Part shown: positions 1 through 25,490 of the stretch, in pieces
How the letters are laid out: each line of letters begins with the position of its first letter
How positions within the stretch are numbered: the first letter of the stretch is position 1
Assembly: GCA_964424095.1 (NCBI GenBank)
Contig: CAYRHE010000001.1
Span: 1 to 53,188 of the forward strand
DNA from: an uncultured Candidatus Peribacteria bacterium
GTDB lineage: Bacteria > Patescibacteriota > Gracilibacteria > Absconditabacterales > Absconditicoccaceae
DNA length: 53,188 bases
Direction of reading: 5' to 3'
Made by a program: the position numbers and the translations under genes
Notes under the pieces: model-generated
The model's database searches: none
Told to the model about the DNA's origin: nothing
The model's input: the letters and a program-made list of their open reading frames with translations, nothing else

Positions 1-51
1 TTCTGCCTTCCAAGCAGACTGTTGCGGGTTCGAGTCCCGTCATCCGCTCCA
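1..51 (+). tRNA. tRNA-Gly (anticodon UCC), 3' portion only; the window starts inside the gene
   Basis: Anticodon stem tctgc/gcaga (2-6/14-18) with loop cTTCCaa. T-arm gcggg-ttcgagt-cccgt. Acceptor 3' strand, U discriminator and encoded CCA ending at 51. Confidence 0.8.
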
Positions 52-1510: not shown

Positions 1511-1520
1511 TTCAGGGGTT
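1502..1520 (-). terminator. Intrinsic terminator between convergent genes
   Basis: Hairpin aacccct-aattc-aggggtt. On the minus strand it is followed by a T-run (complement of the 1485-1501 A-run). Confidence 0.5.
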
Positions 1521-2040
1521 GCTTAGTTGTGATGTAATAGTAGCCATCAGGAATCGGACCAATCTTATTTTTCCTTTTTTTGGTTGATTCCTTATGGACA
1601 AATAGTTTCTCCTTACCAATCTGCCAAACTTCCAGGCTATTGTTGGAAGATAACATTTTGATAGAAATATTGTAATCTTCTTTAGCTGTTCGCAAAAAAC
1701 GAACAAACTTTTCTTTGATAACTAAGTTACCATCAGGAGAAAACATATTCCCCCAGTTCTTCAACATAAACACATTAGAGTCATCATAAAATATTAATGA
1801 ATCCAACGCTTCGGAGAAAAAATTTTTATCAAATTCGTCCTGATATATAGGATTGACTGACCTATAAGCCACAAATTGGCATTGTTTTTCAATAGGCGCA
1901 GATGGCACAATAACAACCAATCCACCTAATTCTACAGAAAAACTTGATGGTTTTTTTTCTTCAAATATTTGCTGACTAAATAACTGAGCATATATATTTC
2001 CCCAAGCCAACATACAGATAATAAATAATATTTTTTTCAT
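1507..2040 (-). CDS. Hypothetical secreted protein (signal peptide)
   Basis: Uninterrupted 177-aa ORF, real TAG stop. N-terminus MKKILFIICMLAWGNIYAQ is signal-peptide-like. No TGA codons. Confidence 0.6.
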   Translation of the reverse strand: MKKILFIICMLAWGNIYAQLFSQQIFEEKKPSSFSVELGGLVVIVPSAPIEKQCQFVAYRSVNPIYQDEFDKNFFSEALDSLIFYDDSNVFMLKNWGNMFSPDGNLVIKEKFVRFLRTAKEDYNISIKMLSSNNSLEVWQIGKEKLFVHKESTKKRKNKIGPIPDGYYYITTKQPLN

Positions 2041-2103
2041 TTTTTTGTTTGTTTTTTTGTTTTCTTCTTATAACCATTTAAACAACAATGTCAATAAAAA
2101 AAA

Positions 2104-2124
2104 CAGGGCGATATAATCGCCCTG
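2104..2124 (-). terminator. Rho-independent terminator of the 2156-3091 gene
   Basis: 8-bp stem cagggcga/tcgccctg. On the minus strand it is followed by a long T-run (plus-strand A-run 2092-2103). Confidence 0.65.
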
Positions 2125-2155
2125 CCTAAACATTTTGGAAAGAGCTTTCCTCTAA

Positions 2156-3091
2156 TTATCTTCTAAGGAATCTCTTGTTTTTTTCTAAACCGTCTCTTCT
2201 TTCCAATTCTTCACTTATTTTTAGGAAGGTTTCTTTGTCTTTCTTATTAATTGCTTCATCCGCTTTTTTCTCAAGATCCTTTTGGCTCATATTTGACAAA
2301 AAAGACTTGAGATTGTGTTCTTGTGAAATTTCATTGACTAATTCTTCGTCATCCTTGAGGTCTTCTTCTATTGTTTTTATGATAGTATTGTAAATTTCTA
2401 CAATATATCTCTTTCTTATACCATCATGATGATCATCAAAGAACCACTCTCTCTTTGCTATCCAATCATCCAAGAACAATCTTTCATCTTCTGGAGTTTT
2501 AAAAAAACAAAGATAATCAAACAAAATTCCAGGAAGAAGCTCTAACTTTTCATCGATAACACTTCTATCAATAAAAAACATAGGACCATTGATATAATCA
2601 AACATATCATCGACGTAATCATCAAAACTATTTATATCAAAACATTCGTCTTGTTTTACATCTTGATTATTGTTTTGATTTACATCATCGATTTTGTTTA
2701 TATTTACTTCCTCCTCGGTTTTATTGGTTTCTACTTCATTTTTATCAACAAATTTGAATGTTTTTATAGAAACATCAGGCAAGTCAATAATAACCGGAGG
2801 GAAAAAACCTCTTTTGGGTTGGATTGAAAAAAGATTAACAAGATATGGTTCATCCAAAGGAAACCAATAATCAAAAACATCTTTAGCAATCTTTTTTACA
2901 AGAACCAAACCAGGAACTGGCATGTCAATACCAACAGCGTTTTTATCCATATATACAGATACTTTAAATTTCTCTCTCGCTTTGGACGCAAGAAAAATTT
3001 GAAAAAAAACTTTATCCACATACAAAGAACTATTGATGCTCATGGATTTTACCGCTTTGGTATATATAATACTTATTTTTTTATTTTCCAT
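2156..3091 (-). CDS. Hypothetical acidic protein
   Basis: Uninterrupted 311-aa ORF, TAA stop, Asp/Glu-rich central part, charged helical C-terminus. No TGA codons. Confidence 0.6.
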   Translation of the reverse strand: MENKKISIIYTKAVKSMSINSSLYVDKVFFQIFLASKAREKFKVSVYMDKNAVGIDMPVPGLVLVKKIAKDVFDYWFPLDEPYLVNLFSIQPKRGFFPPVIIDLPDVSIKTFKFVDKNEVETNKTEEEVNINKIDDVNQNNNQDVKQDECFDINSFDDYVDDMFDYINGPMFFIDRSVIDEKLELLPGILFDYLCFFKTPEDERLFLDDWIAKREWFFDDHHDGIRKRYIVEIYNTIIKTIEEDLKDDEELVNEISQEHNLKSFLSNMSQKDLEKKADEAINKKDKETFLKISEELERRDGLEKNKRFLRR

Positions 3092-3246: not shown

Positions 3247-4548
3247 GTGACTTCAATTTATATACACATCCCATTTTGTGCTCAAAAATGTCCATACTGT
3301 TCATTTTACAGTTTTTTTCTAAATCCAGAAATCAAAGAAAAGATGATTGGCGACTATATTGAAACATTGTACAAAGAAATTACTAATACCGCGCCACATA
3401 TCATAAATAAAAAAATTCAGACGATTTATCTTGGTGGTGGTACACCAAACGTTTTGTCTCCTGAGCAACTGACAGGAATTGTAGATTTTTTGGGGCAACA
3501 TTTTGATACAAGTGAAATAATGGAGCTCAATATCGAACTCAATCCCTACCCTACCCAAGAAATATACAATCTGATTTCTTATTTTCATACTCATTTCAAA
3601 AAACGACCAAGGCTTAGATTTAGTTTTGGAATACAAACTTTTGATAATCAAATTTTGCAAGATGTAAGAAGACCTGTAAGTTTTGGCGGATTAACTGATT
3701 TTTTGAGAGGTCTGAGAGAAATCAAACAAGAAAATATGGTATTTAATTTTGATTTTATTGCGTTTGGAAAGTTTGGCGAAACGAGGAAGGGCGAAGCCCA
3801 ACTTTGGGATCCGGGAAAAATAGATTTTTTTGACCGTTTCGCCAGTAGTCAATTTGCTGATAGTTTTTCTCTTTATACATTGGAGTTATTTCCTGGCTCT
3901 AAATGGCAAAGCAAAACTCCAGATCAAGCAATTTCTGGAACTTATTATGGAAGTGATGACGATATTTTTGCTGAATTTGCCTATCTAAAAGATATAATCT
4001 TGGATGCTTGATATCATAGATATGAATCTTCTAACTTTTCCAAACCTGGAGTAAGCAGCATCCACAATAGAGTCTATCGAACTATGCAAAATTATATATG
4101 ATTTTGACCTAGTGCTTCATCGTTTAGTAGATTAGAGGGGTTAGGTGGGTTAGATGGATTAGGTAGATTAGAGGGGTTAGATAGATTAGGTAGATTAGAG
4201 GGATTAGATGGATTAGGTGGATTAGATAAAGAAGTGAAAGCAGTCAGATGGACTAATACTTCAAACCTTGTAGAATATCTCAAGGGTGATTATATCGATC
4301 AAAGCAAGACTGTATTTATGACGGAAAAAGACCTACTTATTGAATCTTTTTTCTTGTGACTTAGAACTGATACGGGGGTATCTGATCTTGATAAATATAT
4401 TTCTATTTTGGTTAAAAATTATAAAGAACTTGTTGAAGCTTATAAAGATGAATGACTACTTTATGATGTTGATGATAGATTATTGTTGACTGATAAAGGG
4501 ATGGATGTTTCCAATACGATTATAACTGATTTATTGAAAGATATATAA
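3247..4548 (+). CDS. hemW: Radical SAM heme chaperone HemW (HemN-like, oxygen-independent coproporphyrinogen oxidase family)
   Basis: GTG 3247, TAA 4546-4548, 433 aa with TGA=Gly. IHIPFCAQKCPYCSF (CxxxCxxC), YLGGGTP, C-terminal gYHRYESSNFSKPG...HNRVY...gFgPSA. Confidence 0.85.
4129..4227 (+). repeat. In-frame 9-bp tandem repeat (11 units) inside hemW
   Basis: Units RGRTTAGRK read in frame as RLE GLG GLD GLG RLE GLD RLG RLE GLD GLG GLD. The antisense track ORF 4092-4283 (PNPSN repeats) is its mirror artefact. Confidence 0.9.
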
Positions 4549-6588: not shown

Positions 6589-8250
6589 ATGAACTACAAA
6601 GTGCTTTATGACAACCCAAACGAAGAATTACTTACTAGACTACTTAAGATCAGAAATATTACTGAAGATATAGATGCTTTTTTGGAAGCAAGACTTCAGG
6701 ATTATTGGTTGGATCCTTTTTTGCTAAATGATATGGAAATAGCAGTAGAAAGGATAATTTTTGCAATAAAAAACAAACAAAAGATTATGATATTTGGAGA
6801 TTATGATGTTGATTGAGTAACCTCTAGTTATATTTTGTATAAATTTATAAATAAACATCTAAATTATAAAAACATAAGCATTCAATACCCTGACAGAATA
6901 AAAGAATGATATGGTATCAAAAAAATTCACATTGATAATATGAAAAAAAAATGAATTGATTTGGTTATTACTGTTGATAATGGTATCGCTTCACTTGAAG
7001 AAGCTCTTTATGCTAAAGAACTAGGAATAGATCTTGTTATAACTGATCATCACCAAGATTTGGAAAGCATCCCTCAAGCAGTTGCAGTGGTAAATCCCCA
7101 AATTTCTCCAAATTATCCATTTAAATGATTGGCTGGTGTTGGTGTTGCATTCAAACTTATTTGCGCATTACTTACAAGAAGCACTTTTAATCAAGAACAA
7201 AAAAATCAGATTTTCAATTATTTTTTGCCTGTAGTTGCTATTGGTACTGTTGCGGACGTTGTTCCTTTGGTTCACGAAAACAGAATTATTGTAAAAAGAT
7301 GACTTGAAATATTAAACAACAAACAAAGCAAAGTTCCATCTTCTCTTAGAGGATTTTTGACTTATCTAAACATAAAACAACCAATTGATACATATCATAT
7401 AGGATATGTTATTTGACCAAGAATAAATGCTGGTGGAAGAATGACATCTCCTTATGATAGTCTCTATTCACTACTCTACTCTGGAGAAAAACAAATCCCT
7501 TACTTGGAAAATCTAGAACAAATCAACACCGAAAGAAGAAGTGTGCAAGAAAAAATGTTTAAACTTGCAGAACAAAATATTGATTTGGATAAAAAAATTC
7601 TTGTGGTATATAGTGAAGATTTTCATGAAGGTATAGTTTGAATTGTTTCTGGAAGGCTTACAGAAAAATACTACAAACCATCTATGGTTATGAAAGTTGA
7701 TCAAGAAAAACACAGTGCAGTTGCTAGTTTGAGGGGGCCAGATTATTTCGATATTATCGAAATGATAAAATCTGCTGGTCATCTTTTGCAAAGATTTGGA
7801 GGTCATAGATGAGCAGGGGGATTATCTGTTGATCTAGACAATCTAGATGAACTGGTTGCTCATTTCCAAGATTACTGTGAAAAGAAAATTTCAGATAAAG
7901 ATCTCAAAAAAACTATAAGCATAGATACCAAGCTTTATCATCACGAATGGGATCTTGATTCTTTGTGTAAAATTGACAAACTTGCTCCTTTTTGAGAAGG
8001 AAATGGAGAACCGACTTTTTTATTGGAAAATACTCGTGTAAACAAAATTGAAAAAGTAGGAAACAATGGTAAATGACATCTCAAAATCCATGCTACGCAT
8101 GGAGAAGAAAAAATCACCTCCCTCTTTTGGGGAAAAGGTGAAGATGCCTCAAGTATCTCTTCCAACACAATTTCATTGGTTGGAAAAATCAAAAAAGACA
8201 CTTACAATGGTGGTGTTTTTTTGGAAGGAATGGATATGGAAGAAGTATAA
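6589..8250 (+). CDS. recJ: Single-stranded-DNA-specific exonuclease RecJ
   Basis: ATG 6589, TAA 8248-8250, 553 aa with TGA=Gly. DHH motifs [12 protein letters not shown], VDNG, ITDHH and GGH. Confidence 0.9.
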
Positions 8251-8335
8251 AATCAGATTGATTTTTTTGTTTGGAATAATATCATTTTGTTGTTGGATGC
8301 CTCTTTGGGGTATTTTTATTATTATAAAAAGTAAT

Positions 8336-8602
8336 ATGAATCCATCAACATTGGAAAGTTTGGAGAAAGAAATCAAAGACATAAAAGCAAGAAACAAACG
8401 CGTAGAAGAAGATAAAAAATGGGAAACAAGTTGGATGAGAAAAGCAAGTATAGCAGTTTTGACATATATTGTGATAGTTATATTTTTCTTTTCTGCAGGA
8501 CTAGCAAAGCCGTTTATCAATGCTATTGTACCTACTGTTGGATTTTTGCTATCTACTTTATCATTGGATGCAATTAGGAAATTATGGATGAAGAAAAATT
8601 AA
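8336..8602 (+). CDS. Small membrane protein (coiled-coil plus two TM helices), hypothetical
   Basis: ATG 8336 in the frame of track ORF 8066-8602. The upstream part of that ORF overlaps the recJ 3' end and was discarded. Confidence 0.4.
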   Translation: MNPSTLESLEKEIKDIKARNKRVEEDKKWETSWMRKASIAVLTYIVIVIFFFSAGLAKPFINAIVPTVGFLLSTLSLDAIRKLWMKKN

Positions 8603-8620
8603 TAAGAATAAGATTCTCTC

Positions 8621-8767
8621 GCAATAAAAGATAAATAAAATTCATCCATCATCAAGGCAGTATCATATTTGAAATTATGTTCTAGTTATAATTGTATCGC
8701 TGCTTTTTGGCTACTAACAATGTTGGTTTGGTGATGATTTCCTTCTTTTATTTATTCTTTTTATTGC
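8621..8767. repeat. Long AU-rich hairpin element, copy A (paralog at 46170-46300)
   Basis: 5' arm gcaataaaagataaataaaattcatccatcatcaa pairs with 3' arm ttggtgatgatttccttcttttatttattctttttattgc. Arms are conserved in copy B; the apical part is variable. Confidence 0.5.
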
Positions 8768-9770: not shown

Positions 9771-11495
9771 TTAATTATATATTTTCCTATAAAAATTGTA
9801 TCTTTGGTTTTCCAATTCTTCAAAACGATTGTAAATATGAGAAACTCTTGGCAATAATGCATTGAGTATAGAATTTCCTAGTATATTATAAGAAAATTTT
9901 CGCTTATTTTCATAATCAAATATAATTTCATTTTGCTGTCTAGAAAGAGCTTCTACAAAATGTTTTTTGATAAGATACTCTGTATAATCCAAATCCAAAA
10001 GAAATTTTGGAGCAGAAATGTTTTGTTCTTGCATAAAATATTTACTACTTTCTATCCCCATTTGATGCACAAAATAATATTCTTGAACAATCATATTGTG
10101 ATATAGATATCAAGTATCATAAGGAATTAATAATGATTGTAATTCTTGTTTCTGTTGAGAGGAAAGATATGGCAACATTTCTTGTGTGCCAGAAAGAGAT
10201 TTTTGGACTGTTACTATAGAAACAAGAGATCAAAATATCCCCGCTCCATTCTCAAGTCTTTTATTTGCAAAAACAAATCGATCTTTTCGATATGCAAATC
10301 ATTCTTGGCATTGCCCCAACCTACACAACTGGGTAGCAACAGCATTTACTATACTTGTTCTTTCTCTAAGTCTTTCTTCTGGAAATCCCATAGCGTCATA
10401 ATGTGGAATATCTATAGGGACCATAGAATAATCACCAGAAGATATCAAAGCAATATTAGAAAATTCACTGCGAAAATCTCCGGAAAATTCTTGCCAAAAA
10501 TCGGCAAACCCACTTTGTATAATTCCTGTCTGCGAAAGATAATTTTGAACAACAAAAGGATTCTGATTTGTTTTGTCCAAAAAGTTTGTATGATCAAGCA
10601 ACCATTGATTTTGACGATAGTATATATTATCTCAGGTAGCAATATGTTCTTGATATCATTTTTTGATGAATATGTTTTGATATTGAGATATATCATATTT
10701 TGGAGCCACAAAAAAATCTTTTTTGAGATAAGCGATAACTCACAAGACAATAGTTATAGCCAAGACTGATAATCAAAACGATTTTCGATTGTATTTACGG
10801 TTTTGTGAAATTTCTTGATAAGATTTGATAGATAAGATAGAGAAACGAGATATCCACAAACTAAATCAAAAAAACAAAACAAAAACATATTCATTTATAT
10901 TTAAAGACCAGGGAGCATGAAATGATGTAACAATATTTCAATATTCATTAAGATACGTTTTCCCAACTAGATCATCTTGAAAAAGCATCAAAAGGAGTAT
11001 TGAAGACAATGAGGCAGTCATCCATATAATTAATGGGAAAATAAATGATTTTAGTTTGCGTCATTTTACTCACAAAGATAAAACCCAAGAAACAAAACCT
11101 CAAATCGCAAGGATTATTCCAACTATAACACTTACAAAGAAATTTGGAATATAATGAAATGTCTTTAAAACAACGAACAATAAACCAAAAAAACAAAATA
11201 AATTCGATATTATCAACAATATTTTATACGCTCGTTTTTTTTGGAAAAAGATAGATATTATCAAAAGTCAGATTAAAATTAATCCAAAAGTTGAATACAT
11301 TATGATAGGAACCATATTTACAAACAAATCCATCATCAACGAAGGCCCTGAATACCCAATCATATGAAACAATTGAAAAGCCCCAAACCCATAGACCATT
11401 GCATAGACAAGCATAGGAATCCCCAAAAAGAGAGCCAGCAGCAAAACAAAGGTTCATAGTATTTTAAATATTTTTCGATGATAAGAATCTTGCAT
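9771..11495 (-). CDS. Large integral membrane protein (N-terminal polytopic domain plus C-terminal soluble domain), function unknown
   Basis: ATG 11495, stop 9771-9773, 574 aa. I checked every codon from 10601 to 11495 by coordinate and found no TAA/TAG. It joins track ORFs 9771-10094 and 10299-10601 through TGA codons. An upstream in-frame TAA lies at 11535-11537. Confidence 0.6.
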
Positions 11496-11608
11496 GTAAA
11501 AAATTATGACACAAATATGTAACCTATAATCAATTTATACGTATATTCAAAGGATAAAAAATGTTTTTGATTGTTTTTTGTGAGAAAATCTATATAATTA
11601 AAGTGTAT

Positions 11609-11982
11609 GGGGATGTCTCTGGATTTGATAAAGGGACTTCATAATTGATGACAGCCACTACTCGATGAGCGTACCGAGTATACTAATCGTTCAACCAAAA
11701 AATGCTAACGCATCTAAATCTCTTTTAAAGAGAGCTGCTCTTGTTAGTCCTGCTTACGCAGTCTAATTTAGACAGTAACCATCCTGACTGCTGACTCCTT
11801 CTATCTTTCAGGTCGCCCTAAGAAGGAAAACATTATGTTGCTAGGACAAAATGCTCGCCTGTTTATCGGCCAAAGCTTGCCTGTACTAGTAACTTGAAAA
11901 ACCATAGGCCTATAGATAATCTATAGTGGTAGAAATTGTTGATTATGCCTTTTAGACACGGGTTCGATTCCCGTCATCTCCA
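11609..11982 (+). ncRNA. ssrA: tmRNA (SsrA)
   Basis: 5' ggggatg pairs with 3' catctcc, including the G3:U pair. T-arm gggttcgattccc. Discriminator A; CCA is not encoded. Candidate tag ORF 11704-11766: ANASKSLLKRAALVSPAYAV then TAA. Confidence 0.9.
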
Positions 11983-12035: not shown

Positions 12036-12067
12036 AAAGAGATCCTTTGAAAACAAAGAATCTCTTT
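12036..12067 (-). terminator. Terminator of the RiPP operon
   Basis: Composite stem aaagagat-c-ctttg aaaa caaag-a-atctcttt. On the minus strand it is followed by a T-run. It lies 11 nt after the precursor stop. Confidence 0.65.
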
Positions 12068-12078
12068 AATTATTAACA

Positions 12079-12243
12079 TTAATGACAATCGCAATTACAA
12101 TCACAGCCATCTGAACCACAATCATTACAATCACAATTACAATCAGTACAATCAGAACATGCTGAACAATCTTTATATAATTTATCAGCATTCTTTAATG
12201 ACACCACTGCATCATTAAATCCGAAACCCAATAATTTATCCAT
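12079..12243 (-). CDS. Cys/Asp-rich RiPP precursor peptide (54 aa), not in the ORF track
   Basis: ATG 12243 preceded by gaAAGGAGGtttct. TAA 12079-12081. MDKLLGFGFNDAVVSLKNADKLYKDCSACSDCTDCNCDCNDCGSDGCDCNCDCH. Starts 24 nt downstream of the rSAM stop. Confidence 0.7.
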   Translation of the reverse strand: MDKLLGFGFNDAVVSLKNADKLYKDCSACSDCTDCNCDCNDCGSDGCDCNCDCH

Positions 12244-12267
12244 AGAAACCTCCTTTCTGAATTTAAA

Positions 12268-13578
12268 TTATATATTTTTTTTGATTTCTAACAATTTTTC
12301 TTTTCCCATTAGTTTATACACAATTGGTACTAATTCTCTGTACAAAACACAATGAGGATCTTTTCCATTCACCCTTTCTAAAGGACAACCACTTGTACAA
12401 ATATATTTTAAATTACAATTTTTGCAGTCATCATTAACTTCTCCGTAATAACTTTTTTTCTGAATTATCGATAGCAAATCTTCTTTGTCAAATATAGATC
12501 CTATAGAATCCGTTACCCCAAATTGTGTATGACAGAAATATATATTTCCATCTGTATACAAAGCACCTCCTGAAAAACCATTACTACATGTTTGAAAGAA
12601 TGGGTCTGAGAACTTTAAATCACAAAGTTTATGATTTTTAGAAAACTCATAACCATTATCAATAGCAGAAGATAATTCTTTATAACACTCTTTTAATACC
12701 GAAGAGACTTTTTTTATATCAAGACTTTCGTTTTGAACAAAAGAGAATCTAAAGGGTATTTTTTTTCTAATCAAATATTTTGTAAAATCAAGCAAACCAT
12801 CAATATTTTTATTAGACACAACAGTCATAATACCTGGTCTAACACCTGATTGTATTAATTTATTTATATTTGATTCAACAATTTTAAAACTACCATCACC
12901 ATTCTTAAAATAACGAGTGCTATCTTGAAAAGAATCTAATCCATCTAAAGACACGCCTATTCCAATCTTTTCTTCTTTAATAAATGAAATAATTTCGTCT
13001 GATAAAATAGTAAGATTAGTAAGAAAAGTTATCCTTAGTTTACAATTTAATTGGATTAATCGTTGTTTTAAATTTTTTATAGCTTCTTTCCATTGTTTAA
13101 ATTTTAAGAAAGGCTCACCTCCTGCAAGCCGCAACGAAACATAATTAAGATTTTTTTCTTTTACTGTTTGAATAATTTTCTCAGATAAAATATTAATTTT
13201 TTCATCTTCGAGATAATTATTAAATCCTAATGTATGAATATTGCAATACGAACACCTTAGAGTACAATTATTTGTCGTATGAATCCATAAATTTAAACTT
13301 TTAGGTGTAGTATCCCAATAAATATCATCAAAAATATTTGAATAATTAACTATGTTTTTTTCTGATAAAATATCACAGGCCAACTTAATATTATCTTCTG
13401 TCGTTACAAAGAAATCTGCTATTTCTTTAATAGTTTTTTTACCATCTATAAGCATTAAAACATTATACTGGATTTTGTTAATGACCTTTAATCCATCTTT
13501 TATATATGGATTAACTACCGAATAGAACATATCATCTATCGGAATAATTAATAATTGACCATTTCTATACGGTATCAT
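12268..13578 (-). CDS. Radical SAM/SPASM-domain peptide maturase with N-terminal RRE-like domain
   Basis: Uninterrupted 436-aa ORF, AGGAG Shine-Dalgarno. CTLRCSYC (CxxxCxxC), GGEP, C-terminal CKNCNLKYICTSGCP plus further Cys. The N-terminal ~90 aa look like a PqqD/winged-helix domain. Confidence 0.88.
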   Translation of the reverse strand: MIPYRNGQLLIIPIDDMFYSVVNPYIKDGLKVINKIQYNVLMLIDGKKTIKEIADFFVTTEDNIKLACDILSEKNIVNYSNIFDDIYWDTTPKSLNLWIHTTNNCTLRCSYCNIHTLGFNNYLEDEKINILSEKIIQTVKEKNLNYVSLRLAGGEPFLKFKQWKEAIKNLKQRLIQLNCKLRITFLTNLTILSDEIISFIKEEKIGIGVSLDGLDSFQDSTRYFKNGDGSFKIVESNINKLIQSGVRPGIMTVVSNKNIDGLLDFTKYLIRKKIPFRFSFVQNESLDIKKVSSVLKECYKELSSAIDNGYEFSKNHKLCDLKFSDPFFQTCSNGFSGGALYTDGNIYFCHTQFGVTDSIGSIFDKEDLLSIIQKKSYYGEVNDDCKNCNLKYICTSGCPLERVNGKDPHCVLYRELVPIVYKLMGKEKLLEIKKNI

Positions 13579-13622
13579 AATTTTCTCCTTTCTTTTTTGT
13601 TTATTTATCTCTTTATATATAT

Positions 13623-14330
13623 TTATAGTGTTTTATCAACATTTTTATAAACATTTATTCTGTCACATCAATACTCTATCACCTTTTCAAAATTCTTATT
13701 TTGTTTCCAATACTCTCGTAAATCTGATCTCAATTCCTTGTGTAACAGATATCATTTATCTGGTTTAGCTAAAAATTGCTGACATGAATCATTTAAGATA
13801 ACTGTCAGTGATTCCTTGAGAAATTCAAATTGTTCGTTTGTTAAATCTTTCATAGCATTACTATCTTTATAATAATGTATCACTTGAAAATGCTGTAGTT
13901 CGTGAAGAAAATTTCAAAGAAAATTATCAATATTCCAAAAGATACAAGTCCATATATATCATTTTTCATAATCATAAGGACCACGGGGAAAAGTTGTAAG
14001 ATAAATAGTAAAATCTTTTCTATAAATTGGTCTTTTAGTTAATCTTTCCATACAAAGACAAGCTTGTTCAAATTTTTCTTGAAATATCTTTTGAGATTTA
14101 ATTAAAACCGTATCAATAAGTATTTTATTATCTTTATATAATTTATTTAGATATGGTATCATAAACTCTTTTGCTTCTTCATAACTTATTCATACTAATT
14201 TATTTGCTATTTCTTGATATTCTGGAGACAATGATTCTTTCCAATTTTTTCCATGAGAAATTTTATTACATCAATCTACTCGATTTTTGAGATCTTTTTC
14301 GATATCTAGTTGAAACTGAAAAGAAAACAT
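13623..14330 (-). CDS. HExxH motif protein (putative Zn metallopeptidase; candidate leader peptidase)
   Basis: ATG 14330, TAA 13623-13625, 235 aa. Six of its eight Gly are TGA. Contains FLHELQHFQV. Same frame as track ORF 13959-14162. Confidence 0.6.
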
Positions 14331-14368
14331 TATATAAAACTTATAAATTAAATTTTTCCTTTTATTTA

Positions 14369-14396
14369 ATTTTACACTTTGGATAATATAAATCAA
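14369..14396 (-). promoter_or_regulatory. Candidate sigma70-type promoter of the HExxH-rSAM-precursor operon
   Basis: Minus strand TTGATT-16 nt-TAAAAT, about 35 nt upstream of ATG 14330. Confidence 0.4.
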
Positions 14397-14400
14397 ATAT

Positions 14401-14570
14401 AAATATCCACCTCCTATATACTACCCAAACATAATCAGATTCTAATTTCTTTCCATAATTACCCTATCCCCTATCATTTTGGCGAAGTTTCAGAACTTAT
14501 AGATTTCCTCTAGAATCTCTTCATAATTAAACCTAGAGGGTTCAGAACATAAGTTAGTGTGTCCAAATTT
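14401..14570. repeat. Cassette-boundary direct repeat, copy 1 of 3
   Basis: Aligns with 23611-23772 and 25427-25490. Shared blocks: ctcctatatacta(c/t)ccaaaca, cctctagaatctc, agggttcagaacataa. Confidence 0.7.
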
Positions 14571-14824
14571 AGGGTTTTTGATGGTTCAAATAAACCAAAA
14601 CTAGTATAGAGAACTGATATTTCAGGGGTGTGCAAACCCTGATTTTTTTTATAGTAAATTTTGTTGTTGAAGCACACTCTAATTAGTAACCGCTTTATCT
14701 CAATATCCTCTAAATCTCGTGATGCTAAAGGATTTTTTATAACTGTTTTTGCCTCATTATATGTTTTTTCAAATTCACTTTTTATAAAAAGAAACATACC
14801 GCTGTAAGAATTCATGTAATCCAT
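14510..14824 (-). CDS. Hypothetical protein; its C-terminus is encoded by the boundary repeat
   Basis: 104-aa ORF. ATG lies 3 nt after the epimerase stop. The C-terminal ...TYVLNPLGLIMKRF matches the C-terminus of ORF 23716-23910. Confidence 0.4.
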   Translation of the reverse strand: MDYMNSYSGMFLFIKSEFEKTYNEAKTVIKNPLASRDLEDIEIKRLLIRVCFNNKIYYKKNQGLHTPEISVLYTSFGLFEPSKTLNLDTLTYVLNPLGLIMKRF

Positions 14825-14827
14825 TTT

Positions 14828-15736
14828 CTATGGAAACTGTAGGCCCCATCATAATTCAGATATTGATATCGATATATCAGCCCATGTTTTATCTACATCA
14901 GATTTTGGCGCCGAAGAATAGTTTTTATTAATATTAAATCAAAAAAAAGACTCTATAATAGAAATAATTTTTTTTATCTTTACAGGAGATCAATTTCCTA
15001 AATTAAAAATACAAGACTTACCAAAAGTAGAATATTCAGCAGCCAAAACAATTCATTTAACAACATCATCTATATAAGTAAAATCTCTTTCCATATTTCA
15101 ATTATTAAAAACAGTTATTTCTTGTCATGATACACATTTTTTAGTAAAATCAAAATAAGCCATATCAGGTCTTCCTAAAGGTCAATAGACTGTAAAAAGT
15201 CTAAGTCAAACAGATCAAAAATTAAAAGTATCACTATATGACTTTGCAATCAATTCATTAGATTTTTTGGTTACAGCATACAAGGATTTAGGATTATCAG
15301 AACTATCTGATAATCATGATGGACTATTAGTTTTTCTATCTCCATAAACACTTGAACTAGATGCATAAACCATATTTTCAACAGAATATTTTCTTGCCAA
15401 ATCTATAATAGTTCAAAAACCAGTTATATTAGAATCAATATACGCTTTGGGGTTTATTTCTCCGTACCTAACACCAGCCTGAGCTGCCAAATGGAACACT
15501 TTTTGAAAATTGTATTTTTGAAAAACAGACTCTATATCATCATAGTTTTTTAGATCAGCTTTTATAAATACAAAATTCTTATATTTTTCTAATAAATGTC
15601 TCCTTGCTTCTTTCAAAGATATATCATAATAATCATTTTCAATATCCAATCAGACTACATTATATCACTGTCTCAATAGAAAATCAGAAACGTGATATCA
15701 AATAAATCAACTTGATCATGAAACCAAATAATACAT
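14828..15736 (-). CDS. NAD-dependent nucleotide-sugar epimerase/dehydratase (SDR family)
   Basis: ATG 15736, TAG 14828-14830, 302 aa with TGA=Gly. MYYLVSgSSgFIgYHV (GxxGxxG), SSSSVYG, YAVTK (YxxxK). Confidence 0.85.
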
Positions 15737-15783
15737 AGTTATGTTTAGAATAGATAATAAAATTAGTTTTTATAACACGTTCA

Positions 15784-17022
15784 TTAATCGAAAAAAGTAT
15801 ATAACAATGATTTCTTTAATACTTTAGAATAAAGGTCATTACTCATAATATTTTGTATATTTTTTATATTTTCTACTACTAGATATCATTCATTACATGA
15901 AGTTTGGTTTTTAAAATCATATATATTATTTTTCTTTACAACAAAAATAAAACATCTAGTAATGTCCATATTTTCTTTTTTTATAAATAATTGCCTATTC
16001 TCTATCTCTTCTTCTTTTAAGGAAATACCTAGTTCTTCATATACCTCCCTTAACATTCCATCAATAATTAATTCTCACTTTTCAAGTCATCAGCCAAATA
16101 ATGTATATTTTCAACTATTTTTGATATTTTTTTTATGATCTCTCTTTTGTATTATAAAATTTCAATTAGAATCATAAAACAATACCCCTGTGTAGATATT
16201 TTGGTTATCAATTAGATCGTCATATATTTCTATCTCCTTTTCTAAATAATATTTTTTGTCTAATTTTTCTACAAATGGCAAAAAATCTTCTGCAATATTC
16301 TGATTATATTCTCATATAATTTTATTATTACTAATTACTAATCAACCATATTTATGATCCAACACCTTTTGATAAGAATTGCCTATATACATAGTTCATA
16401 AAGAGGGACTTTGGTATATTTTATTATATGTTTTTCTATATTTATCTCTCTCATTTATTAAATTCTTAACATTATCTTCACCTTTATAATCAAACTTAAG
16501 ACCAACCTTATCTATAAAGATATTAGTCATATACTTAAATTGAGAAAATCTTTTTCAGAAAATCAAATCTTTTTTTTCTACTTTATGTAAATCTCATTTT
16601 TCATCATAATATATAACATATTTTAGATTATCAAATATAGATAATCATAATTTTCATGATCATGAGTTATTTATAACAGCTCCACCAACTGTTCATGGAA
16701 TTCATCGTAAATACGACCCATCAAATCATAAACTACTAAGCTTACTTACTAAAGATGACAACAATACTCATGAATCTAATTCAACAGTTCAATCATTGGA
16801 TATATCATAACCATCAACTAAAAGCTTTTTATATACAAAAAGCTTTTTATTTTTATTCTCTAATTTTAGAAAAGTATTTGTTAAACATCATACAACTTTG
16901 AAATCAATTCATCTATTATAACAAAAAGAAATAGCATCAATCAACTTATCTCTTTGATCAAAATAAGCAATCTGATTAATCTCAGTACCTAATATCCAGT
17001 TACCAAATTTTCTAATACTCAT
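15784..17022 (-). CDS. MurB-like UDP-N-acetylenolpyruvoylglucosamine reductase fused to a C-terminal Nudix hydrolase domain
   Basis: ATG 17022 (tAGGAG Shine-Dalgarno), TAA 15784-15786, 412 aa. gIPgTVGGAVINNSgSgK and PSLgTMYIGN are MurB-like. Nudix box ggLEKgE...REVYEELGI near the C-terminus. Confidence 0.65.
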
Positions 17023-18352
17023 AAGACGCTCCTATTAGTTTTAAAACATTTTCTATATCATGATATCATCTTTTTAAAATAGAAAAATTATTTATTATAA
17101 GTTTTTTCTTAGTATAGATTCACAATAATAACAACAATCAAGATTCTCTTATACTAAATAAGTCAAAAGGATCACATGCAAAGTTTTGTTTAGAAACAGT
17201 TCATTTAGAATGACTTAAAATATAGGTATTTCAATCTACAATATTGGAATCTAATCCAAGATCTTTATAATATTCTATATATTTATATCTATCTGGAAAC
17301 CTATTATCCACAAGAGAAATCAACGGATAAAACAATATAATTAGAGATAATATAGGTAAAGAATCACTCATAATATCAGGATATACACTTGCTATTAAAT
17401 TAATACTATCTTTATAACTTATAGACAAATTTGAATAATCAATAATCAGATTTGATTCTGTCCTTGTAATAATATTTCCAAATAGTTTTTCTATAAGAGA
17501 TATTTCCATATAAGGATAATTGTTATTATATTTATTGATAATTATCTTCTGTTTTGCCAACAAAGAAATAAATATATAAAACAACAACTGATCAAAATCA
17601 GATAGAACAAAATAAGACAAAGATTTTATATCATTTGATTTATATTTTATTCCCAAGAATTTCCTTTCTTCACTAGAAAATTGTATATCATAACCAAACA
17701 AAGAACAAACATTCATTAATTCTTTTATATCAGGTCTGTTTCAATAAAAATTACCTACTTCAATACTATCATATTTGTCATAATTCAACAAACAATATAA
17801 TAAAACATTCTCTGAAACTGATGTTGATTCAATTTTCATCTTATATTCTATTGATCTATGATCAATATTTTTATTTCTTTTGATTATAATCTTATTTGAT
17901 CTTTCTATAATATCATGTCACACTTTTTCAAAGAAATCGTAATGTATATCGTTTTTTCTTTCTCACTGAATATTACATCATCATGTGTGCATAGGAATAG
18001 AAACTTCATCAAAAAAACTAAGAAGCAATCATAAAAGCAAAATAGAATATCTTATTTTCTCATATAGTTGTTCGTTTATTATATTAGTTAATTTTGTATT
18101 TTTACCATCAATAGTAAGTTCATTTTTATCTTCATACATGGATATAGAGAATCATAGTCATATCAACATCTCTATTGAAGACTTAACATCTGATGATGAT
18201 GGAATGTTTTTTAGTGTGATATCTTTTTTATCTTTATAGCATATACCTGCACATAGAAATAAAAGTGGTAATATTGTGTTTTTTGCTCATAACAAAGGTA
18301 ATGTAATCTCTTGTCATTGATATTTATCAATTTTTGAAAAATCTATTATCAT
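17012..18352 (-). CDS. MurA-like UDP-N-acetylglucosamine 1-carboxyvinyltransferase (EPSP-synthase fold)
   Basis: ATG 18352, TAG 17012-17014, 446 aa; codons checked by coordinate. LLGAKNTILPLL, TggCNIQgERKNDIH (catalytic Cys loop). Overlaps its downstream neighbour by 11 nt. Confidence 0.72.
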
Positions 18353-19406
18353 GTTTGATCAAATAAATAAAAACAGCTATTGTAAATAATTTCCATCTTT
18401 TTGATTTTATATTTTCCTCCTTTAATATTTCTTCAACAAAATCTATATTTATATTGAAACAATCTATTGTGCTATAATTATCATATATATACTGATAATA
18501 TTGATCGATAACTTCTTCCAATACCGGATATTTAAATCATTGTTTTTTTTCTTCAATATTTATGCTAAAGTTATTTTGTAAATAATTTCTAAGATAACTT
18601 TTATCTTGGGAATTAATATTAAATCTGTTTATTAGAGAAATATATTTATAAAATCATGAATAAAAGGGATAATAAATTATATCTCTACCATATAAACAGT
18701 TATCCATCATTTTATATGTAATATTATTAAACCAAACATCTATATCTCTAAATAATTCTGATGAAACATCTTTATACAAGAACTCTTGATTATTTGGCAG
18801 ACCGAGCAACATTGATATTTCTTCAGAAGAAAATATAATAGGCTTTTCAAATGAATCCATATTTTCTGATAGACCGAATATCTCATCTCATAGATCTCAA
18901 GTAACCAATAAAGAGTTATCATCTACTGCTTGGGATAAATTATAATAACTCATTAATGTAGGATGAGAGACTGTATTTTTAAATACGATATTCTGAATAT
19001 TTCACATTGATTCTGAACTTGAATATCTCTTATATTTAATATTTAAATTGTCTCATACATACTTTTTTATAAGATCTGTTTCATCAAATCACTTATCGTA
19101 AGATATACTAATCGAACTGAAATCTATATTATTTTTTGAAAGAATATTAGATATTAAAACAGAATCTATTCATCCACTTAATGCCAAAACAATTTTTTTT
19201 CAAGTCTCATTAGATAGTTTTTTAATTTTTTCTGTAATACTATCAAATTCTTTATCTAACATGCCTATTAATTCCTCTTGCTTAAGATTAGTTATTTGTT
19301 TGATCTCTAATCAAATATTTTTATTTGAGAAAAGGTCCGATCATTCTTGTTTATCAAAACCAAATTTTAGAAAGAAGTCTATTTTAGATAAGTTAGCTTT
19401 TCTCAT
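18324..19406 (-). CDS. Asparagine-synthetase-like PP-loop ATP pyrophosphatase (synthetase domain only, no glutaminase domain)
   Basis: ATG 19406, TAA 18324-18326, 360 aa. LALSGgIDS (SGGxDS). Joins track ORFs 18654-18860 and 18327-18521. Confidence 0.65.
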
Positions 19407-20164
19407 TCAATATAAACATACTTAAATAAAGGCAATCACTGTTCTTTCTCTAGCATATATATATTAGTTATTCAACATGACTTTATTTTATTTATAATAT
19501 TATCATTAATTTCTTTATCCAACACAACTCATTTAACCTTTTTAAATATTCATTTAATTTTTATAATATCTAACAAATATAGAATCATATCTAAATCTAT
19601 ACCATGAAAATCAAAATATAATATAGAATTTTTCAGATTAAATTTAAATATATCATAAGTATTAAGAAATATTGATATATGACCACCAAATATTTTTCAA
19701 TGTAATTTATATAATCAGGATATTATTTTTATTTTAATTGAAGTAGTATCTTTTTCAATGAAGTTAGTTAAACTATTTTTTTCATCAATAGTAAGGTCGC
19801 CTATATTTCTCATCGTTACTCAATACCAAACATCGACGAGTGGATAATTGGCAAATATAGATTGGATATGTTGCAAATCACTATATCAAATCAGAATTTT
19901 TCTATTTTTGATTTTTTGTTTTATCATCAATTTTTCTACGTATTGTATGGCGCTTACACCACCAGACGTAAACAATATGATTGACTCTCAGTCATCTTTC
20001 ATAATCTGTTCAAAGACATTTATTCAAGACTCTAATAATGTTTCCTTATAAAGAATTGGATCATATCACATATCTTTTATAGCGGATAATCACTGATCTA
20101 TTTCTGTATCAGATATTTTAGCCTTTATATCGCTTAAGTTTAGCACATGAATCTTTTTTTTCAT
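19379..20164 (-). CDS. LD-carboxypeptidase-like serine peptidase (S66/LdcA-MccF family)
   Basis: ATG 20164, TAG 19379-19381, 261 aa. ILIgYSDLQHI (nucleophile Ser context), FGGH. Overlaps the next gene by 28 nt. Confidence 0.6.
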
Positions 20165-20172
20165 ATTTTTTT

Positions 20173-22107
20173 TTATAAAATAAATTCACTAGCAATAATA
20201 AATCATTTTAGTTTTTTTTCAATTGTATTATTTATAATTCATAAATATCAAATAACTTCATCATTCAATACTATATCAAAGGAAGCATCTTTAGACAACA
20301 AAGGAATATTTGGATTATTCTTTAATTCAATTTTAACATCTTTACTAGATTTAAATAAACTATATATTTCGGAAAAAACAACATTAAACAATCAAAAATC
20401 TTCTTTAGAAAAAGAATTTATCAAACACAAATGTTTTTTATCTCACTTTTTGGTAGATATATTTTGAACAGAGAACATTTTTCTAGGATATTTGTCTGTA
20501 TTTGATAATAATTTATCTAACATAGATAACGTCATATTATTTATCAAAACATTTTCTCATCAATTACAAACAATATTGTCTCCAAATAGAGAAGAAAAGT
20601 ATTTTGAATTTTCGCTTTGATCTGGTATAAGCCTTTTAAATAAAGGAATATCTATATGATTATATAGTTTATTAAGAAAGAAAGCATTTGTAAAATCTAG
20701 ATATTGAACAGAATCAATCTTATTTGCATTTTTTTGATTATTCACGCTATATTTCAAATCCTCGGATATAATATCAAACAATTCTCCAATAAAATCATAA
20801 GAAGAAACTAAATCAGTTCTATATTTTGGTACAGTAATATTGTATTTATTATTATCATCAGCACTATCAACTATATTTCGCCCCAATCATCAATTAGATA
20901 TTTTATTAACATCAATATTTTTTCATAAGACATCAGTTAATTCTTTCTTTATAAGATAAACAATACTGTTTTCTTGATGAACACTATCTTGTTTATAATC
21001 AGATAAAAATATTAAATTTCTAGGATCATATGATGAAAAAGATATTTCTAATAAATTATCTTTATTATGAATAATCTTTCAACCATAATATTGTTCTAAA
21101 AAATATGGGAAAGATGGAAAAAAATCATCTTTCCAATTTCAAGAAATCTGTAAAGATTTTTCTTTCACTTCACATTTAGATTGACTTTGTATCTTCTCAT
21201 AATTTCTATCGATGATACTATAGAAAATATTTTTTGAAAAAAGATCTATTCTCTTTAAATTTAGAGGACGAATAGAAAGAAATTCCTTATCTTCTACTAT
21301 TTCTATCTGAAGATCTTTCTGCTTCATTTTTATCATATCCTCATAACGCTTATCTACTACTATTGATTTAGATGCATTAAATTCCTTATTGTTTATTTCT
21401 TTTTTATTATTTACGTTATCAAGTTTCATTCAAAAAATAAACAAACGATCTTTTGTTTTATCGATTCTATCTACAAGTTCTTTGTCAATATATCATCATA
21501 CCATTGAAACATTCTTTCCACTAGATGTTCTGAACACAACTCTGAAAGAAACTGAAACAAAATAAAAAATTTTTTTTTCAATATTAGATAAATAAACTTC
21601 TTCTCACAACGATTCTTCTAAAAAATTTTTCATTAACAAGATATTCTCTTGTATATTCATTCATGATGTTCATCATTCTACCTGAGCATATTCTTTTTTA
21701 TTTTTTCTAAATAGCTTATCTAATATAAAGACTTTAGAATCATTACCTAAAATCAACTGCTTTATAAGCAATCAACTAAACTGAGATACTAATGTTTTCT
21801 TATTTTCATAGCCACCTGTATCTCCATATTTTTTATCTAAATAATGCTTAATAATATTTGTATAAGAATCCTCGCTAGATATAGAAGTATCTTTAATATC
21901 TACATATATCTGTCACTCTTTGTAGAGAGGTGAATATGTCGGTGTTAATCCCCATACCAAATTATGATTTGTATCTTGTAGAGGAGAGATATTAAGCTGA
22001 GTAAACCCATTTAGTTTTAAAAACAAGATCATTTTATCCGATAAAATATGCTCTTTGCTTTTTTCTCATATCTGCTTTATTGGAACTATATAAGAATTTA
22101 ACATCAT
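20173..22107 (-). CDS. Divergent PheRS beta-subunit-like protein lacking the C-terminal FDX-ACB (B8) domain
   Basis: ATG 22107, TAA 20173-20175, 644 aa; frame checked codon by codon from 20887 to 22125. B5-like ITVPKYRTDLVSSYDFIGELFDI. Ends ...gIINNTIEKKLKgFIIASEFIL. Confidence 0.45.
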
Positions 22108-22152
22108 TACAGCTCTTTTATATTATAATAAAACAAGTAGACAACGTGTTTT

Positions 22153-23505
22153 CTATCTTAAATGATAAGATAATTCTTGTTCTAATTTATCTCTAATTTT
22201 AAAATACATTATATTGATTTCCTCATTAGTTAATGTTTTTTCTAATGATCTAAAAGTTATTCTCATACAGACAGACTTTTTATCTGATCAAAACTTTTTA
22301 TCATTTTCAAATATATCTATTACTTTTACTTCTTCAATCAATCATCATGATATATCTCTTGCTATACCTGCTAATTCAAAAGAATCTGCCTCATTTTTTA
22401 ATTCAATCTTATCAGATTCTTTAGATTTTTTTTCATTCTCAACAAATTTATCTTTTGATGTAAGAAAGGAAATATCTTTATATACAGGAGGAAAATTACT
22501 CACTTCTTTATATTGATCTAAATTTCACCATTGAGATGTTATTCTTTCATCCTCACTCCAAAATATTCTGATATCTGGCACTTTTTTTAATGCCATTACT
22601 AACCTATCTATTCAGAAACCGAAGGCCCATCAATTATATTTATTTGCATCTATTCATAATTTTTCCAACACAGTTGGGTGTACAACTCATGCACCTAAAA
22701 CCTCTAACCATTTTCATTCAAATTCCACTTCAACTTCTAAGCTATCTGTTGTATATGGAAAACTATCTTCGTTAAATCTATATTTGATGTCATCGCCAAA
22801 CAATGCTTTTATAGTATGTTCTAATACATCCTTTAATGTATCCTGATTTATTTCTTCTTTATCTTTTGAAACTATTCTTAATCCATCTATCTGATGAAAA
22901 CATTCATGATGTGTCTTATCTAAATCATCGACACGATAAACTTTTCAAAAAGACAATGCTTTTACCTCGCCTGTTTTTTCTAAATATTCTTTTGCTTTAC
23001 CTTCCAATAGATAATAATACCACATCACAGATGTATGTGGTCTCAATAAAACACTTTCCTTTTTCTCTTCTGATTTATTAATAAAATAACTATCACTAGG
23101 TCTTCTTGCTACGTGATCTTCTTGAAAATTAAACAAGTCAAACGTTTCCCATTCTGATACAAATTGTGGAACTTCAACACTATCAAATCAAGCAAAAAAA
23201 TCTGAATTATAAATTTTTTTCATAACTAAATTGATTGGATGCCCTTCTTGTCTAGATAAATCTGGCATCGATAATACTCTCATAATACGATTATAATAGG
23301 CTACTTCCTTTGGCGCTAATGTATCATCTTTTAATTTTTCTTCTAAATATTTAAACCATGCCTCATCATTTCCAGATATTTTTATCTTATTGCGATTTTC
23401 AGATACTAATCAAAAAATTTCTTTTTTCATATTTATATCATCTTTTCTTTTTTCGTTATTGTTTTCATTAAATACATCACTCTTATTTATTGTACCCATT
23501 TCCAT
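22153..23505 (-). CDS. Mitochondrial-type (FARS2-like) single-chain phenylalanyl-tRNA synthetase: class II core plus FDX-ACB domain
   Basis: ATG 23505, TAG 22153-22155, 450 aa. LRPHTS, FgKVYRVDDLDKTHHECFHQIDGL (motif 2), gKWLEVLGAgVVHP...gWAFGFgIDRLVMALKKVPDIRIFWSEDERI (motif 3), then [10 protein letters not shown]...SVCMRITFRSLEKTLTNEEI. Confidence 0.85.
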
Positions 23506-23610: not shown

Positions 23611-23772
23611 CATTATCTCCTATATACTATCCAAACACAATCAAAATCTATACTTCTTTCAAGACTCCTCTATTTTCCAGCATCATCCCAAACTCTCAAA
23701 AACTATAAACCTCCTCTAGAATCTCGCTATACTTCCACCCTCAGGGTTCAGAACATAATTCAGTAAGTCCAA
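23611..23772. repeat. Cassette-boundary direct repeat, copy 2 of 3
   Basis: See 14401-14570. Same order and orientation of conserved blocks. Confidence 0.7.
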
Positions 23773-25426: not shown

Positions 25427-25490
25427 AATATCCTACATACTATCCAAAATACAATCAGATTCTAATTTCTTTCTATAACTACCCTAAAAT
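25427..25490. repeat. Cassette-boundary direct repeat, copy 3 (distal part only)
   Basis: aatatcctacatactatccaaaatacaatcagattctaatttctttctataactaccct aligns with 14404-14468. It starts 1 nt after the Fic stop. Confidence 0.6.

Follow-up and report, generated by a model that had tools for sequence, protein, structure and literature searches.

A changed genetic code is often viewed as a firewall against gene exchange, and genomic islands are known to integrate at ssrA or tRNA genes. Phages that are compatible with translation table 11 (code 11, in which UGA is a stop) have been described for which Gracilibacteria and Absconditabacteria are the predicted hosts (Liu et al. 2023, PMC10746230). Among peptide-modifying enzymes, PapB joins Cys to Asp or Glu by thioethers (PMC9413430). 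The element considered here may be compared with all of these. It is a three-gene cassette found in 53,188 nucleotides of DNA from an uncultured Candidatus Peribacteria bacterium (contig CAYRHE010000001.1 of assembly GCA_964424095.1), a stretch which, taken at its full length, we call the window. To the right of the transfer-messenger RNA (tmRNA) gene, ssrA, and as read on the minus strand under code 25 (UGA as glycine), the cassette consists of a gene for a protein with an HExxH motif, then one for a radical S-adenosylmethionine (SAM)/SPASM peptide maturase, and then one for the precursor of a ribosomally made peptide with post-translational modifications (RiPP). Here the term ‘core’ describes the maturase and precursor genes together, ‘recoded’ describes UGA=Gly bacteria, G000 is the genome under study, and other G and L labels are comparison genomes and loci. 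Our favored reading, held with somewhat more confidence than doubt, is that this RiPP cassette was laterally acquired from a recoded donor, with its core being TGA-free throughout the cassette lineage and crossing the boundary between codes.

In enzymological terms, PapB/PapA (freyrasin), SCIFF (ScfB), and CcpM are what the cassette most resembles. With these it shares a radical-SAM core domain along with SPASM, that is, a CX3CX2C motif plus seven C-terminal cysteines, and with PapB/PapA and related systems it shares as well a small, adjoining, Cys/Asp-rich precursor. The maturase matches Pfam PF04055 (E = 1.9e-15), aligns over its full length to SPASM peptide-maturase models, and possesses cysteines that are invariant among 43 homologues, i.e., C105, C109, and C112 of CX3CX2C, and C331, C349, C385, C388, C394, C398, and C410 of SPASM. 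The precursor ORF (open reading frame), 24 nt downstream of the maturase, encodes a leader with an FND motif followed by a Cys/Asp-rich core peptide (...CSACSDCTDCNCDCNDCGSDGCDCNCDCH). Homologous precursors adjoin the maturase in L079, L097, L078, L003, and L228 as well as in standard-code loci, with an FND/FDD leader motif seen at more than 20 loci. It is this combination, of CX3CX2C, the C-terminal cysteine set, and an adjoining small Cys-rich precursor with conserved leader, that identifies a radical-SAM/SPASM RiPP maturase.

Differences from those systems also exist. The maturase scores below the curated cut-off of every named maturase family, with the best NCBIfam match, PapB (NF047865), reaching 116.8 bits versus a cut-off of 340. 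Cysteine spacing in the core peptide is C-x(1-2)-C with interleaved Asp, as opposed to CX3D, and the partner is a Pfam-less HExxH protein of recoded hosts only. The chemistry of the cassette, furthermore, is predicted from sequence, versus the thioethers that have been described for PapB (PMC9413430). The maturase belongs to a family without a name, about 90 members of which were found, mostly in Bacteroidota (in named genomes mainly Spirosomataceae, Mucilaginibacter, and Pedobacter, at 38-48% identity). Probably the product is a ranthipeptide-type peptide that is thioether cross-linked. The maturase's N-terminal domain would bind the precursor's leader, the maturase would form Cys-to-Asp/Asn thioether bridges, and the HExxH protein would cut off the leader. 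That third protein has no Pfam or NCBIfam match, possesses invariant H143, E144, and H147, and has an AlphaFold2 model (pLDDT 93) for which Foldseek returns weak, zincin-like matches among solved structures (E of at least 0.1), mostly zinc metallopeptidases (ArdC, M1, M4). We describe it as a putative small zincin-like metallopeptidase.

The core and its neighbors differ in how glycine is encoded. All 25 glycines of the maturase and all four of the precursor use GGN codons, and both genes end with TAA, versus six TGA and two GGN in the HExxH gene and 14 TGA and 21 GGN in a gene for a 574-aa membrane protein on the other side of ssrA (9771-11495, minus strand). The counts made previously in a sequence-only reading of the window match our recount throughout, and with 0 TGA and TAA stops the gene pair indeed is readable under both tables 11 and 25, as was then stated. 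‘Code-neutral’ here describes genes which lack TGA, stop with TAA, and occur in hosts of both codes, with code inferred from flanks. The maturase and precursor are code-neutral in this sense, but the HExxH gene, with its six TGA, is not.

How unusual is this? The genome, of 1.03 Mb and 29% GC, employs TGA for 49.6% of its Gly codons (799 code-25 ORFs). At that rate the binomial probability of 0/25 is 4e-8, a value which overstates the case as TGA use is overdispersed, i.e., with a wide spread between genes. The TGA share also drops with rising gene GC (r = -0.70). Among the 341 genes that have 20 Gly or more, seven lack TGA altogether, and those other than the maturase are GC-richer, being either highly expressed/core genes or Bacteroidota-like surface genes. 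EF-Tu, GroEL, RuBisCO, PurA, and an S-layer-like gene are TGA-poor and GC-richer too. At the GC of the maturase (0.26-0.28), genes use TGA for 61% of their Gly, and among 206 low-GC genes (GC < 0.29, at least 200 aa, at least 10 Gly) the maturase is the sole gene with less than 15% TGA, the next lowest being 2/11. The sequence-only reading had looked to genome-wide statistics, including the existence of many TGA-free native genes, as the check on its claims. Such genes do exist, GC-richer and probably highly expressed, but none has the composition of the maturase, which is an outlier in TGA use at its GC but not in its non-Gly codon usage, as that is genome-typical (approximately the 47th to 53rd percentile).

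Chance or artefact, that is, sampling fluctuation, chimeric assembly, or a gene-caller bias toward TGA-free proteins, is an extremely improbable explanation for this pattern. TGA use is overdispersed, 2% of Gly-rich genes are TGA-free, and table-11 protein databases favor TGA-free full-length matches. The maturase nevertheless is the only outlier among those 206 low-GC genes, TGA-using genes flank it on the same contigs, more than 10 runs from sludge, digesters, and wastewater contain the identical cassette, and the pattern repeats in independent assemblies as searched by six-frame translation and DNA pattern, i.e., without gene calls. Three further candidates were rejected as well. Avoidance of TGA as a nucleotide-level motif is not seen, as out-of-frame TGA trinucleotides occur in the maturase at a normal rate; an effect of radical-SAM genes as a class is not seen, as in the genome's other radical-SAM genes, eight in number, TGA accounts for 6-48% of Gly; and general codon adaptation is inconsistent with average non-Gly codon usage. 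The TGA-free state of the maturase is real, specific, and beyond chance. The claim that maturase and precursor differ from their neighbors in history or selective regime has held up.

Other TGA-free genes of the genome can be noted here. Bacteroidota-like surface genes without TGA (0/31, 0/65, 0/31, 0/35, and 0/19 Gly) are found at C4:26977-30476 and C8:19712-23592, on contigs shared with TGA-using genes (C4:26500-31000 is locus L227). They include a PorP/SprF-like gene, one for a SprB-repeat protein with a type IX secretion system (T9SS) C-terminal domain, and genes for T9SS-tail proteins. PyrF and PyrE, which are an adjoining pair, and ThyA (C5:20521-22005, C18:2871-3722) are all TGA-free and GC-richer than the genome, and these may represent further standard-code imports or instead genes under codon selection.

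The same split between genes is seen beyond this genome, with host code judged from in-frame TGA in flanking genes along with coding density under codes 11 and 25. Across eight recoded hosts, maturases contain just 2 TGA among 218 Gly, both within the last three codons, versus 30/66 in the HExxH genes (Fisher 7e-20), and flanks of these loci use TGA for approximately 10-75% of Gly. Counts of TGA and GGN are, respectively, 0 and 25 in G000, 0 and 30 in L078, 1 and 30 in L079, 0 and 27 in L003 (which is G432), 0 and 20 in a partial copy from L219, 0 and 24 in L097, and 1 and 26 in L228, these being the TGA-free clade, plus 0 and 34 in L004, of a neighboring clade. Maturases of a sister clade, by contrast, carry TGA at or above host level: 29/31 Gly in G018, 22/29 in G370, 23 TGA in L140, 18 TGA in L145, 15/51 Gly in L222 (host level), and a TGA-containing partial copy in G381. 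The four copies of full length, G370 and L222 among them, have 15-29 TGA each. Neither the enzyme family nor the host explains this difference, as G370 and G432 belong to one genus and yet carry opposite kinds of cassette, and as EF-Tu has just two TGA in each of G370 and G381, both of which are hosts of TGA-rich maturases. Sister-clade precursors are themselves TGA-free, with 0/11 Gly versus 74/87 in their maturases.

Two loci with sister-clade maturases display additional features. In L222 (3666-5693) a fusion joins the maturase to a C-terminal domain (about 230 aa, function unknown), and no HExxH gene adjoins it. In L206 (G018:C31), with the TGA-rich cassette of G018 nearby, a second PapB/CcpM-like radical-SAM maturase (0/21 TGA) and an FGE/GldK-like gene (0/45 TGA) are found at 7357-8718 and 10241-11794, with a 411-aa gene containing 23 TGA between them, and therefore TGA-free and TGA-saturated genes can alternate on one contig.

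What was imported, on sequence evidence, is all three genes rather than two, moving as one block between recoded hosts. This is because the HExxH gene, like the maturase, is absent from all eight congeners and because homology of G000 to other hosts' cassettes covers exactly window positions 12085-14342, beyond which flanks are unrelated. Similarly, L003 and L219 share a single collinear match of 1974 nt (71% identity) that takes in maturase, precursor, and HExxH gene only, again with unrelated flanks. The HExxH gene adjoins the maturase in seven of the eight recoded TGA-free loci and also in those sister-clade loci that have flanking sequence, with three gene orders seen among cassettes. Its tree shows the same two-clade split as the maturase tree, and pairwise identities of the two genes correlate (r = 0.80). 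Matches to an HExxH hidden Markov model, furthermore, are found in recoded hosts only, never in standard-code loci, and TGA sites in the HExxH genes are largely common to both clades, with all six G000 positions being TGA in distant cassettes as well. Because the HExxH gene arrived with these old, shared TGA-Gly codons, the immediate donor was, most likely, also a UGA=Gly bacterium, rather than a phage or a donor with the standard code. The earlier proposal of an imported cassette thus survives as to foreignness but not as to extent, the unit being three genes rather than two, and its proposal of a recent standard-code or phage donor is not supported, given those same six codons.

In L097 no HExxH gene is seen on the 6.6-kb contig. 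Just upstream of its TGA-free maturase is a 151-aa gene (3897-4352), of unknown family, that also is TGA-free (0/12), the host being one in which about 70% of Gly is encoded by TGA. In genus g24, a 1.85-kb block consisting of the maturase and two precursor genes lies between the HExxH gene and mutS (L079, 9889-11734), and exactly this block is missing from G439 (L197, 6690-6710) and G299 (L199), the flanks of which are 93-97% identical to those of L079. No repeats were found at the L079/G439/G299 block junction, so gain of the block versus its loss is not decidable.

A different possibility is a recent and direct import of maturase and precursor, out of a phage or a bacterium with the standard code, with integration at the tmRNA gene and too little time since then to have acquired TGA. 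The pace of TGA gain, quick in native genes, bears on this. When G000 is compared with either G005 or G006, the TGA/GGN state is not the same at 20-27% of the Gly sites conserved in native genes of syntenic regions. Polarized with G006 as outgroup, and as counted since the split from G005, native genes of the G000 lineage have gone from ancestral GGN to TGA at 16 of 89 sites (18%), with no reversions, for which the probability of zero gains among 25 sites is 0.007. Arrival of the cassette in G000 after the G005 split is consistent with its zero TGA, and direct import would fit as well with 0/29 TGA across the core, with the cassette's absence from congeners, with the variability between congeners of the stretch after ssrA, with the closest maturases being those of standard-code hosts, and with the stop-like TGAs of L079 and L228 that are described below.

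Recent arrival does not, however, explain the TGA-free maturases of older divergences, i.e., of eight recoded hosts at synonymous saturation. Between L003 and L219, 58% of fourfold sites differ and yet all 17 shared maturase Gly remain GGN, while of the shared HExxH Gly sites TGA stands in both loci at four and in one locus only at two. Because eight recoded hosts share the TGA-free state despite such saturation, that state alone is no proof of recent arrival. The lack of TGA is stable and belongs to the cassette lineage, rather than being the fresh mark of a standard-code donor, and the earlier treatment of TGA-freeness as a sign of recent transfer consequently is not sustained. TGA-free status can last elsewhere in the genus too, as with a PorP/SprF-like gene that lacks TGA in each of five congeners (41-70% identity). 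Direct import faces, in addition, an HExxH gene in the same block, with six TGA at positions common to distant cassettes and no standard-code homologue, along with an absence of integrase or att repeat and with best plasmid and phage relatives that are only about 23-30% identical. We view it as quite unlikely.

The cassette's distribution, as determined by six-frame searches that are independent of gene calling, is patchy. The maturase is present in none of eight congeners, in 6 of the 141 genomes searched for the family, and in 4 of 401 from a sample of the class, and the HExxH gene is present in none of the eight congeners and 29 of the 141 family genomes. To the left of ssrA, congeners G005, G006, and G008 are syntenic with G000, and to the right each is different, this being the outcome of the synteny check that had been suggested. 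Metagenome contigs break at the ssrA 3' end. Being absent from eight congeners, rare in the family, and located within the stretch that varies after ssrA, the cassette is foreign to this lineage. In public DNA runs from sludge, digesters, landfill, and wastewater it is almost invariant, and this near-invariance across samples left no GGA/TGA polymorphism to score; the fragmentation of contigs in these runs prevents linkage of the cassette with its flanks.

Whether the cassette is an ssrA island in the usual sense is a separate issue. Like ssrA islands, it is found close to the ssrA 3' end (the precursor's stop is 96 nt away), in a region of congener-variable content and of assembly breaks. Unlike them, it lacks an integrase as well as a direct repeat of the ssrA 3' end, the variable stretch here consists mostly of TGA-rich cell-wall and PheRS genes, and in other hosts the cassette is not at ssrA. 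Specifically, no integrase was found among genes at 12079-23505 or among the ssrA-proximal genes of congeners, and no ssrA 3'-end copy was found to the right of ssrA (the best match there is 14 nt, on the opposite strand), confirming what the sequence-only reading had reported on both counts. A possible att site at window 25-44, at the contig start, is a 20-nt match to the tmRNA T-arm/3' end, and was rejected as lying on the wrong side of ssrA. Searches of plasmid and phage collections yielded no close relative, only radical-SAM genes at approximately 23-30% identity, and thereby identified no vector. In other hosts the cassette neighbors mutS, bipA, or other genes, likewise without integrase or att repeat. 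The general landing site of the cassette is not ssrA, even though the stretch following it does differ in every congener.

Links of the core to standard-code hosts are nonetheless evident. The clade which includes the G000 maturase (support 97/95) consists of 20 sequences, of which 13 are from standard-code hosts, six are from recoded hosts, and one is from a host whose code is unknown, the clade's sister being the L079 type (96/97). The maturases closest to that of G000, at 58-61% identity (L088, L089, L218), belong to standard-code loci, termite-gut metagenomes being the source of many. A tree with the recoded TGA-free copies monophyletic is rejected (approximately unbiased, AU, test, p = 0.0035). 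In standard-code loci, a MobB relaxase of Bacteroidota type (in L094) or a tyrosine recombinase (in L104) is near the core, in many cases along with a YcaO gene. NCBI labels on standard-code loci include ‘Cytophagia’ and ‘Planctomycetales’, which are hints to host identity only. We infer that the core has crossed the code boundary at least once.

In which direction that crossing occurred is harder to say. With outgroup rooting, recoded lineages form a basal grade and standard-code hosts one nested group, which includes L078, and under parsimony one export from recoded to standard-code bacteria (one to two changes) is preferred over several imports (four changes), though with support inside the mixed clade being weak and the root inferred. 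This rooting leaves room for export of the module from recoded to standard-code bacteria. As for the phylogeny that had been called for as a check, it supports the sequence-only reading insofar as G000 shares its clade with standard-code hosts. Pointing against export are terminal TGAs. The single TGA of the L079 maturase is part of an ATGA overlap with the precursor's start and is followed by TAA two codons on, the L228 maturase ends TGA TTT TAA, and the first L079 precursor has a TGA exactly at the stop position of its G000 and L097 orthologues. The terminal TGAs of L079 and L228 look like fossil standard-code stops.

A likeness may be drawn here to the code-11-compatible phages. The core, like these phages, is DNA found in or targeting UGA=Gly hosts that has no in-frame TGA and so is readable under both codes, and in these phages, as in the L079 and L228 maturases, a terminal TGA is closely backed by another stop. 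Unlike the phages, however, the cassette is chromosomal, biosynthetic, and without phage genes, it is code-neutral in only two of its three genes, and its state lasts through deep divergence beside a TGA-using partner.

An alternative that dispenses with transfer as the cause is translational selection. If the core were very highly expressed and UGA a poor Gly codon, then code-neutrality could be simply a by-product. Consistent with this, TGA is scarce in EF-Tu (3/36), RuBisCO (2/38), and the S-layer-like gene (1/79), as well as absent from the PorP/SprF-like gene of the five congeners, and the precursors of the TGA-rich clade, TGA-free in the midst of TGA-rich maturases, fit with a selective effect upon small genes of high expression. 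Seven read-size contigs (99-100% identity) from two activated-sludge metatranscriptomes all fall within the maturase, the same two having no genuine match to about 25 kb of window sequence flanking it or to the EF-Tu and S-layer loci of G000, and the stretch from HExxH gene to epimerase is in no RNA run. At most, these contigs hint at high, or separate, expression of the core. RNA runs were, though, selected using the maturase as query, such contigs are a poor measure of expression, and fragments could be from another host carrying the gene. Translational selection also has to contend with maturase non-Gly codons that are average, with a maturase GC that is the lowest of all TGA-free genes, and with the sister-clade maturases of G370 and G381, TGA-rich in hosts with just two TGA in EF-Tu. 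Translational selection is, in sum, an unlikely alternative.

We return then to lateral acquisition of the three-gene cassette from a recoded donor. Under this reading the cassette would move as a unit among UGA=Gly bacteria, and the G000 lineage would have gained it laterally following its split from the nearest sampled congener, with landing in the variable stretch after ssrA. The two-gene core, readable under both codes, would have crossed the recoded/standard-code boundary more than once, and TGA would be kept out of it by repeated passage via standard-code hosts, by expression-linked purifying selection, or by both. Several points weigh against this reading. No mechanism has been shown by which a core remains TGA-free beside a co-inherited, TGA-carrying HExxH gene. 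Repeated re-entry from standard-code donors would require landing beside the HExxH gene every time and would not predict the co-divergence of maturase and HExxH that is seen. Expression-linked selection predicts non-Gly codons of the highly expressed type, versus the middling percentile of the maturase, and EF-Tu avoids TGA in hosts that carry TGA-rich sister-clade maturases. Host code, moreover, is inferred from short flanks for several metagenome loci, the tree is weakly resolved inside the mixed clade, and the AU-test groups were defined only once the tree had been seen.

A bolder version, held quite tentatively and as improbable, is that the core is actively kept UGA-free, with its survival depending on its working under both codes. 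The core then would shuttle back and forth from episymbiont-type, UGA=Gly bacteria to bacteria with the standard code, Bacteroidota for example, and the HExxH gene would be locked to recoded hosts, so that full peptide processing perhaps could occur only there. Such a module would be adapted to life on both sides of a code boundary.

Features of the locus are collected in Table 1. The longest start of the HExxH ORF is a TTG at 14396, but homologues align from the ATG that is listed. A hairpin plus T run also closes the cassettes of L078, L079, L097, and L003; homology of the G000 and L079 terminators was considered and rejected, both being generic hairpins.

Table 1. The cassette and its immediate surroundings (window coordinates)
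Feature	Position	Strand	Basis and remarks
tmRNA gene (ssrA)	11609..11982	+	ARAGORN; left edge of congener-variable stretch
Intrinsic-terminator-like hairpin	12036..12067	-	Terminator scan; 14-bp stem then T run; closes cassette
RiPP precursor, 54 aa	12079..12243	-	0 TGA, 4 GGN, TAA stop; FND-motif leader; homologous precursors elsewhere
Radical-SAM/SPASM peptide maturase, 436 aa	12268..13578	-	0 TGA, 25 GGN, GC 26.3%, TAA stop; PF04055, PapB best match
HExxH protein, putative small zincin-like metallopeptidase, 235 aa	13623..14330	-	6 TGA, 2 GGN
Intergenic repeat copy just beyond cassette	14411..14566	not assigned	Repeat search

Further copies of the intergenic repeat are found at 23617-23772 (71% identity) and 25444-25486. 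The repeat family (71-88% identity) flanks the cell-wall/PheRS block on both sides, and synteny with G005 restarts directly past the second copy. Elsewhere in the window, two adjoining minus-strand genes at 1507-3091 (177 aa, 0/8 TGA; 311 aa, 0/7 TGA) have no counterpart in the fetched syntenic regions of G005 and G006. In related strains from DNA and RNA runs, a 115-nt segment of the tmRNA (window 11667-11783, overlapping the tag-coding part) is swapped for 107 unrelated letters, a variant that is abundant in metatranscriptome X24 (depth about 120).

In terms of what the cassette signifies, code-compatible phages of such hosts were already known (PMC10746230), and it is the persistent split within one co-inherited cassette that is the new element. 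In code-25 genomes, a lack of TGA does not by itself prove that a gene was recently imported. As a means of finding the product, the two core genes could be expressed in E. coli without alteration. More generally, a biosynthetic module appears to have crossed the boundary between UGA=Gly and UGA=stop. If its UGA-free state is maintained, that is, if it is not merely young, then codon choice in recoded genomes would be under selection, either for transferability or for expression, and the cassette would provide a concrete case with which both the leakiness of the genetic-code firewall and the direction of that leakage might be measured.

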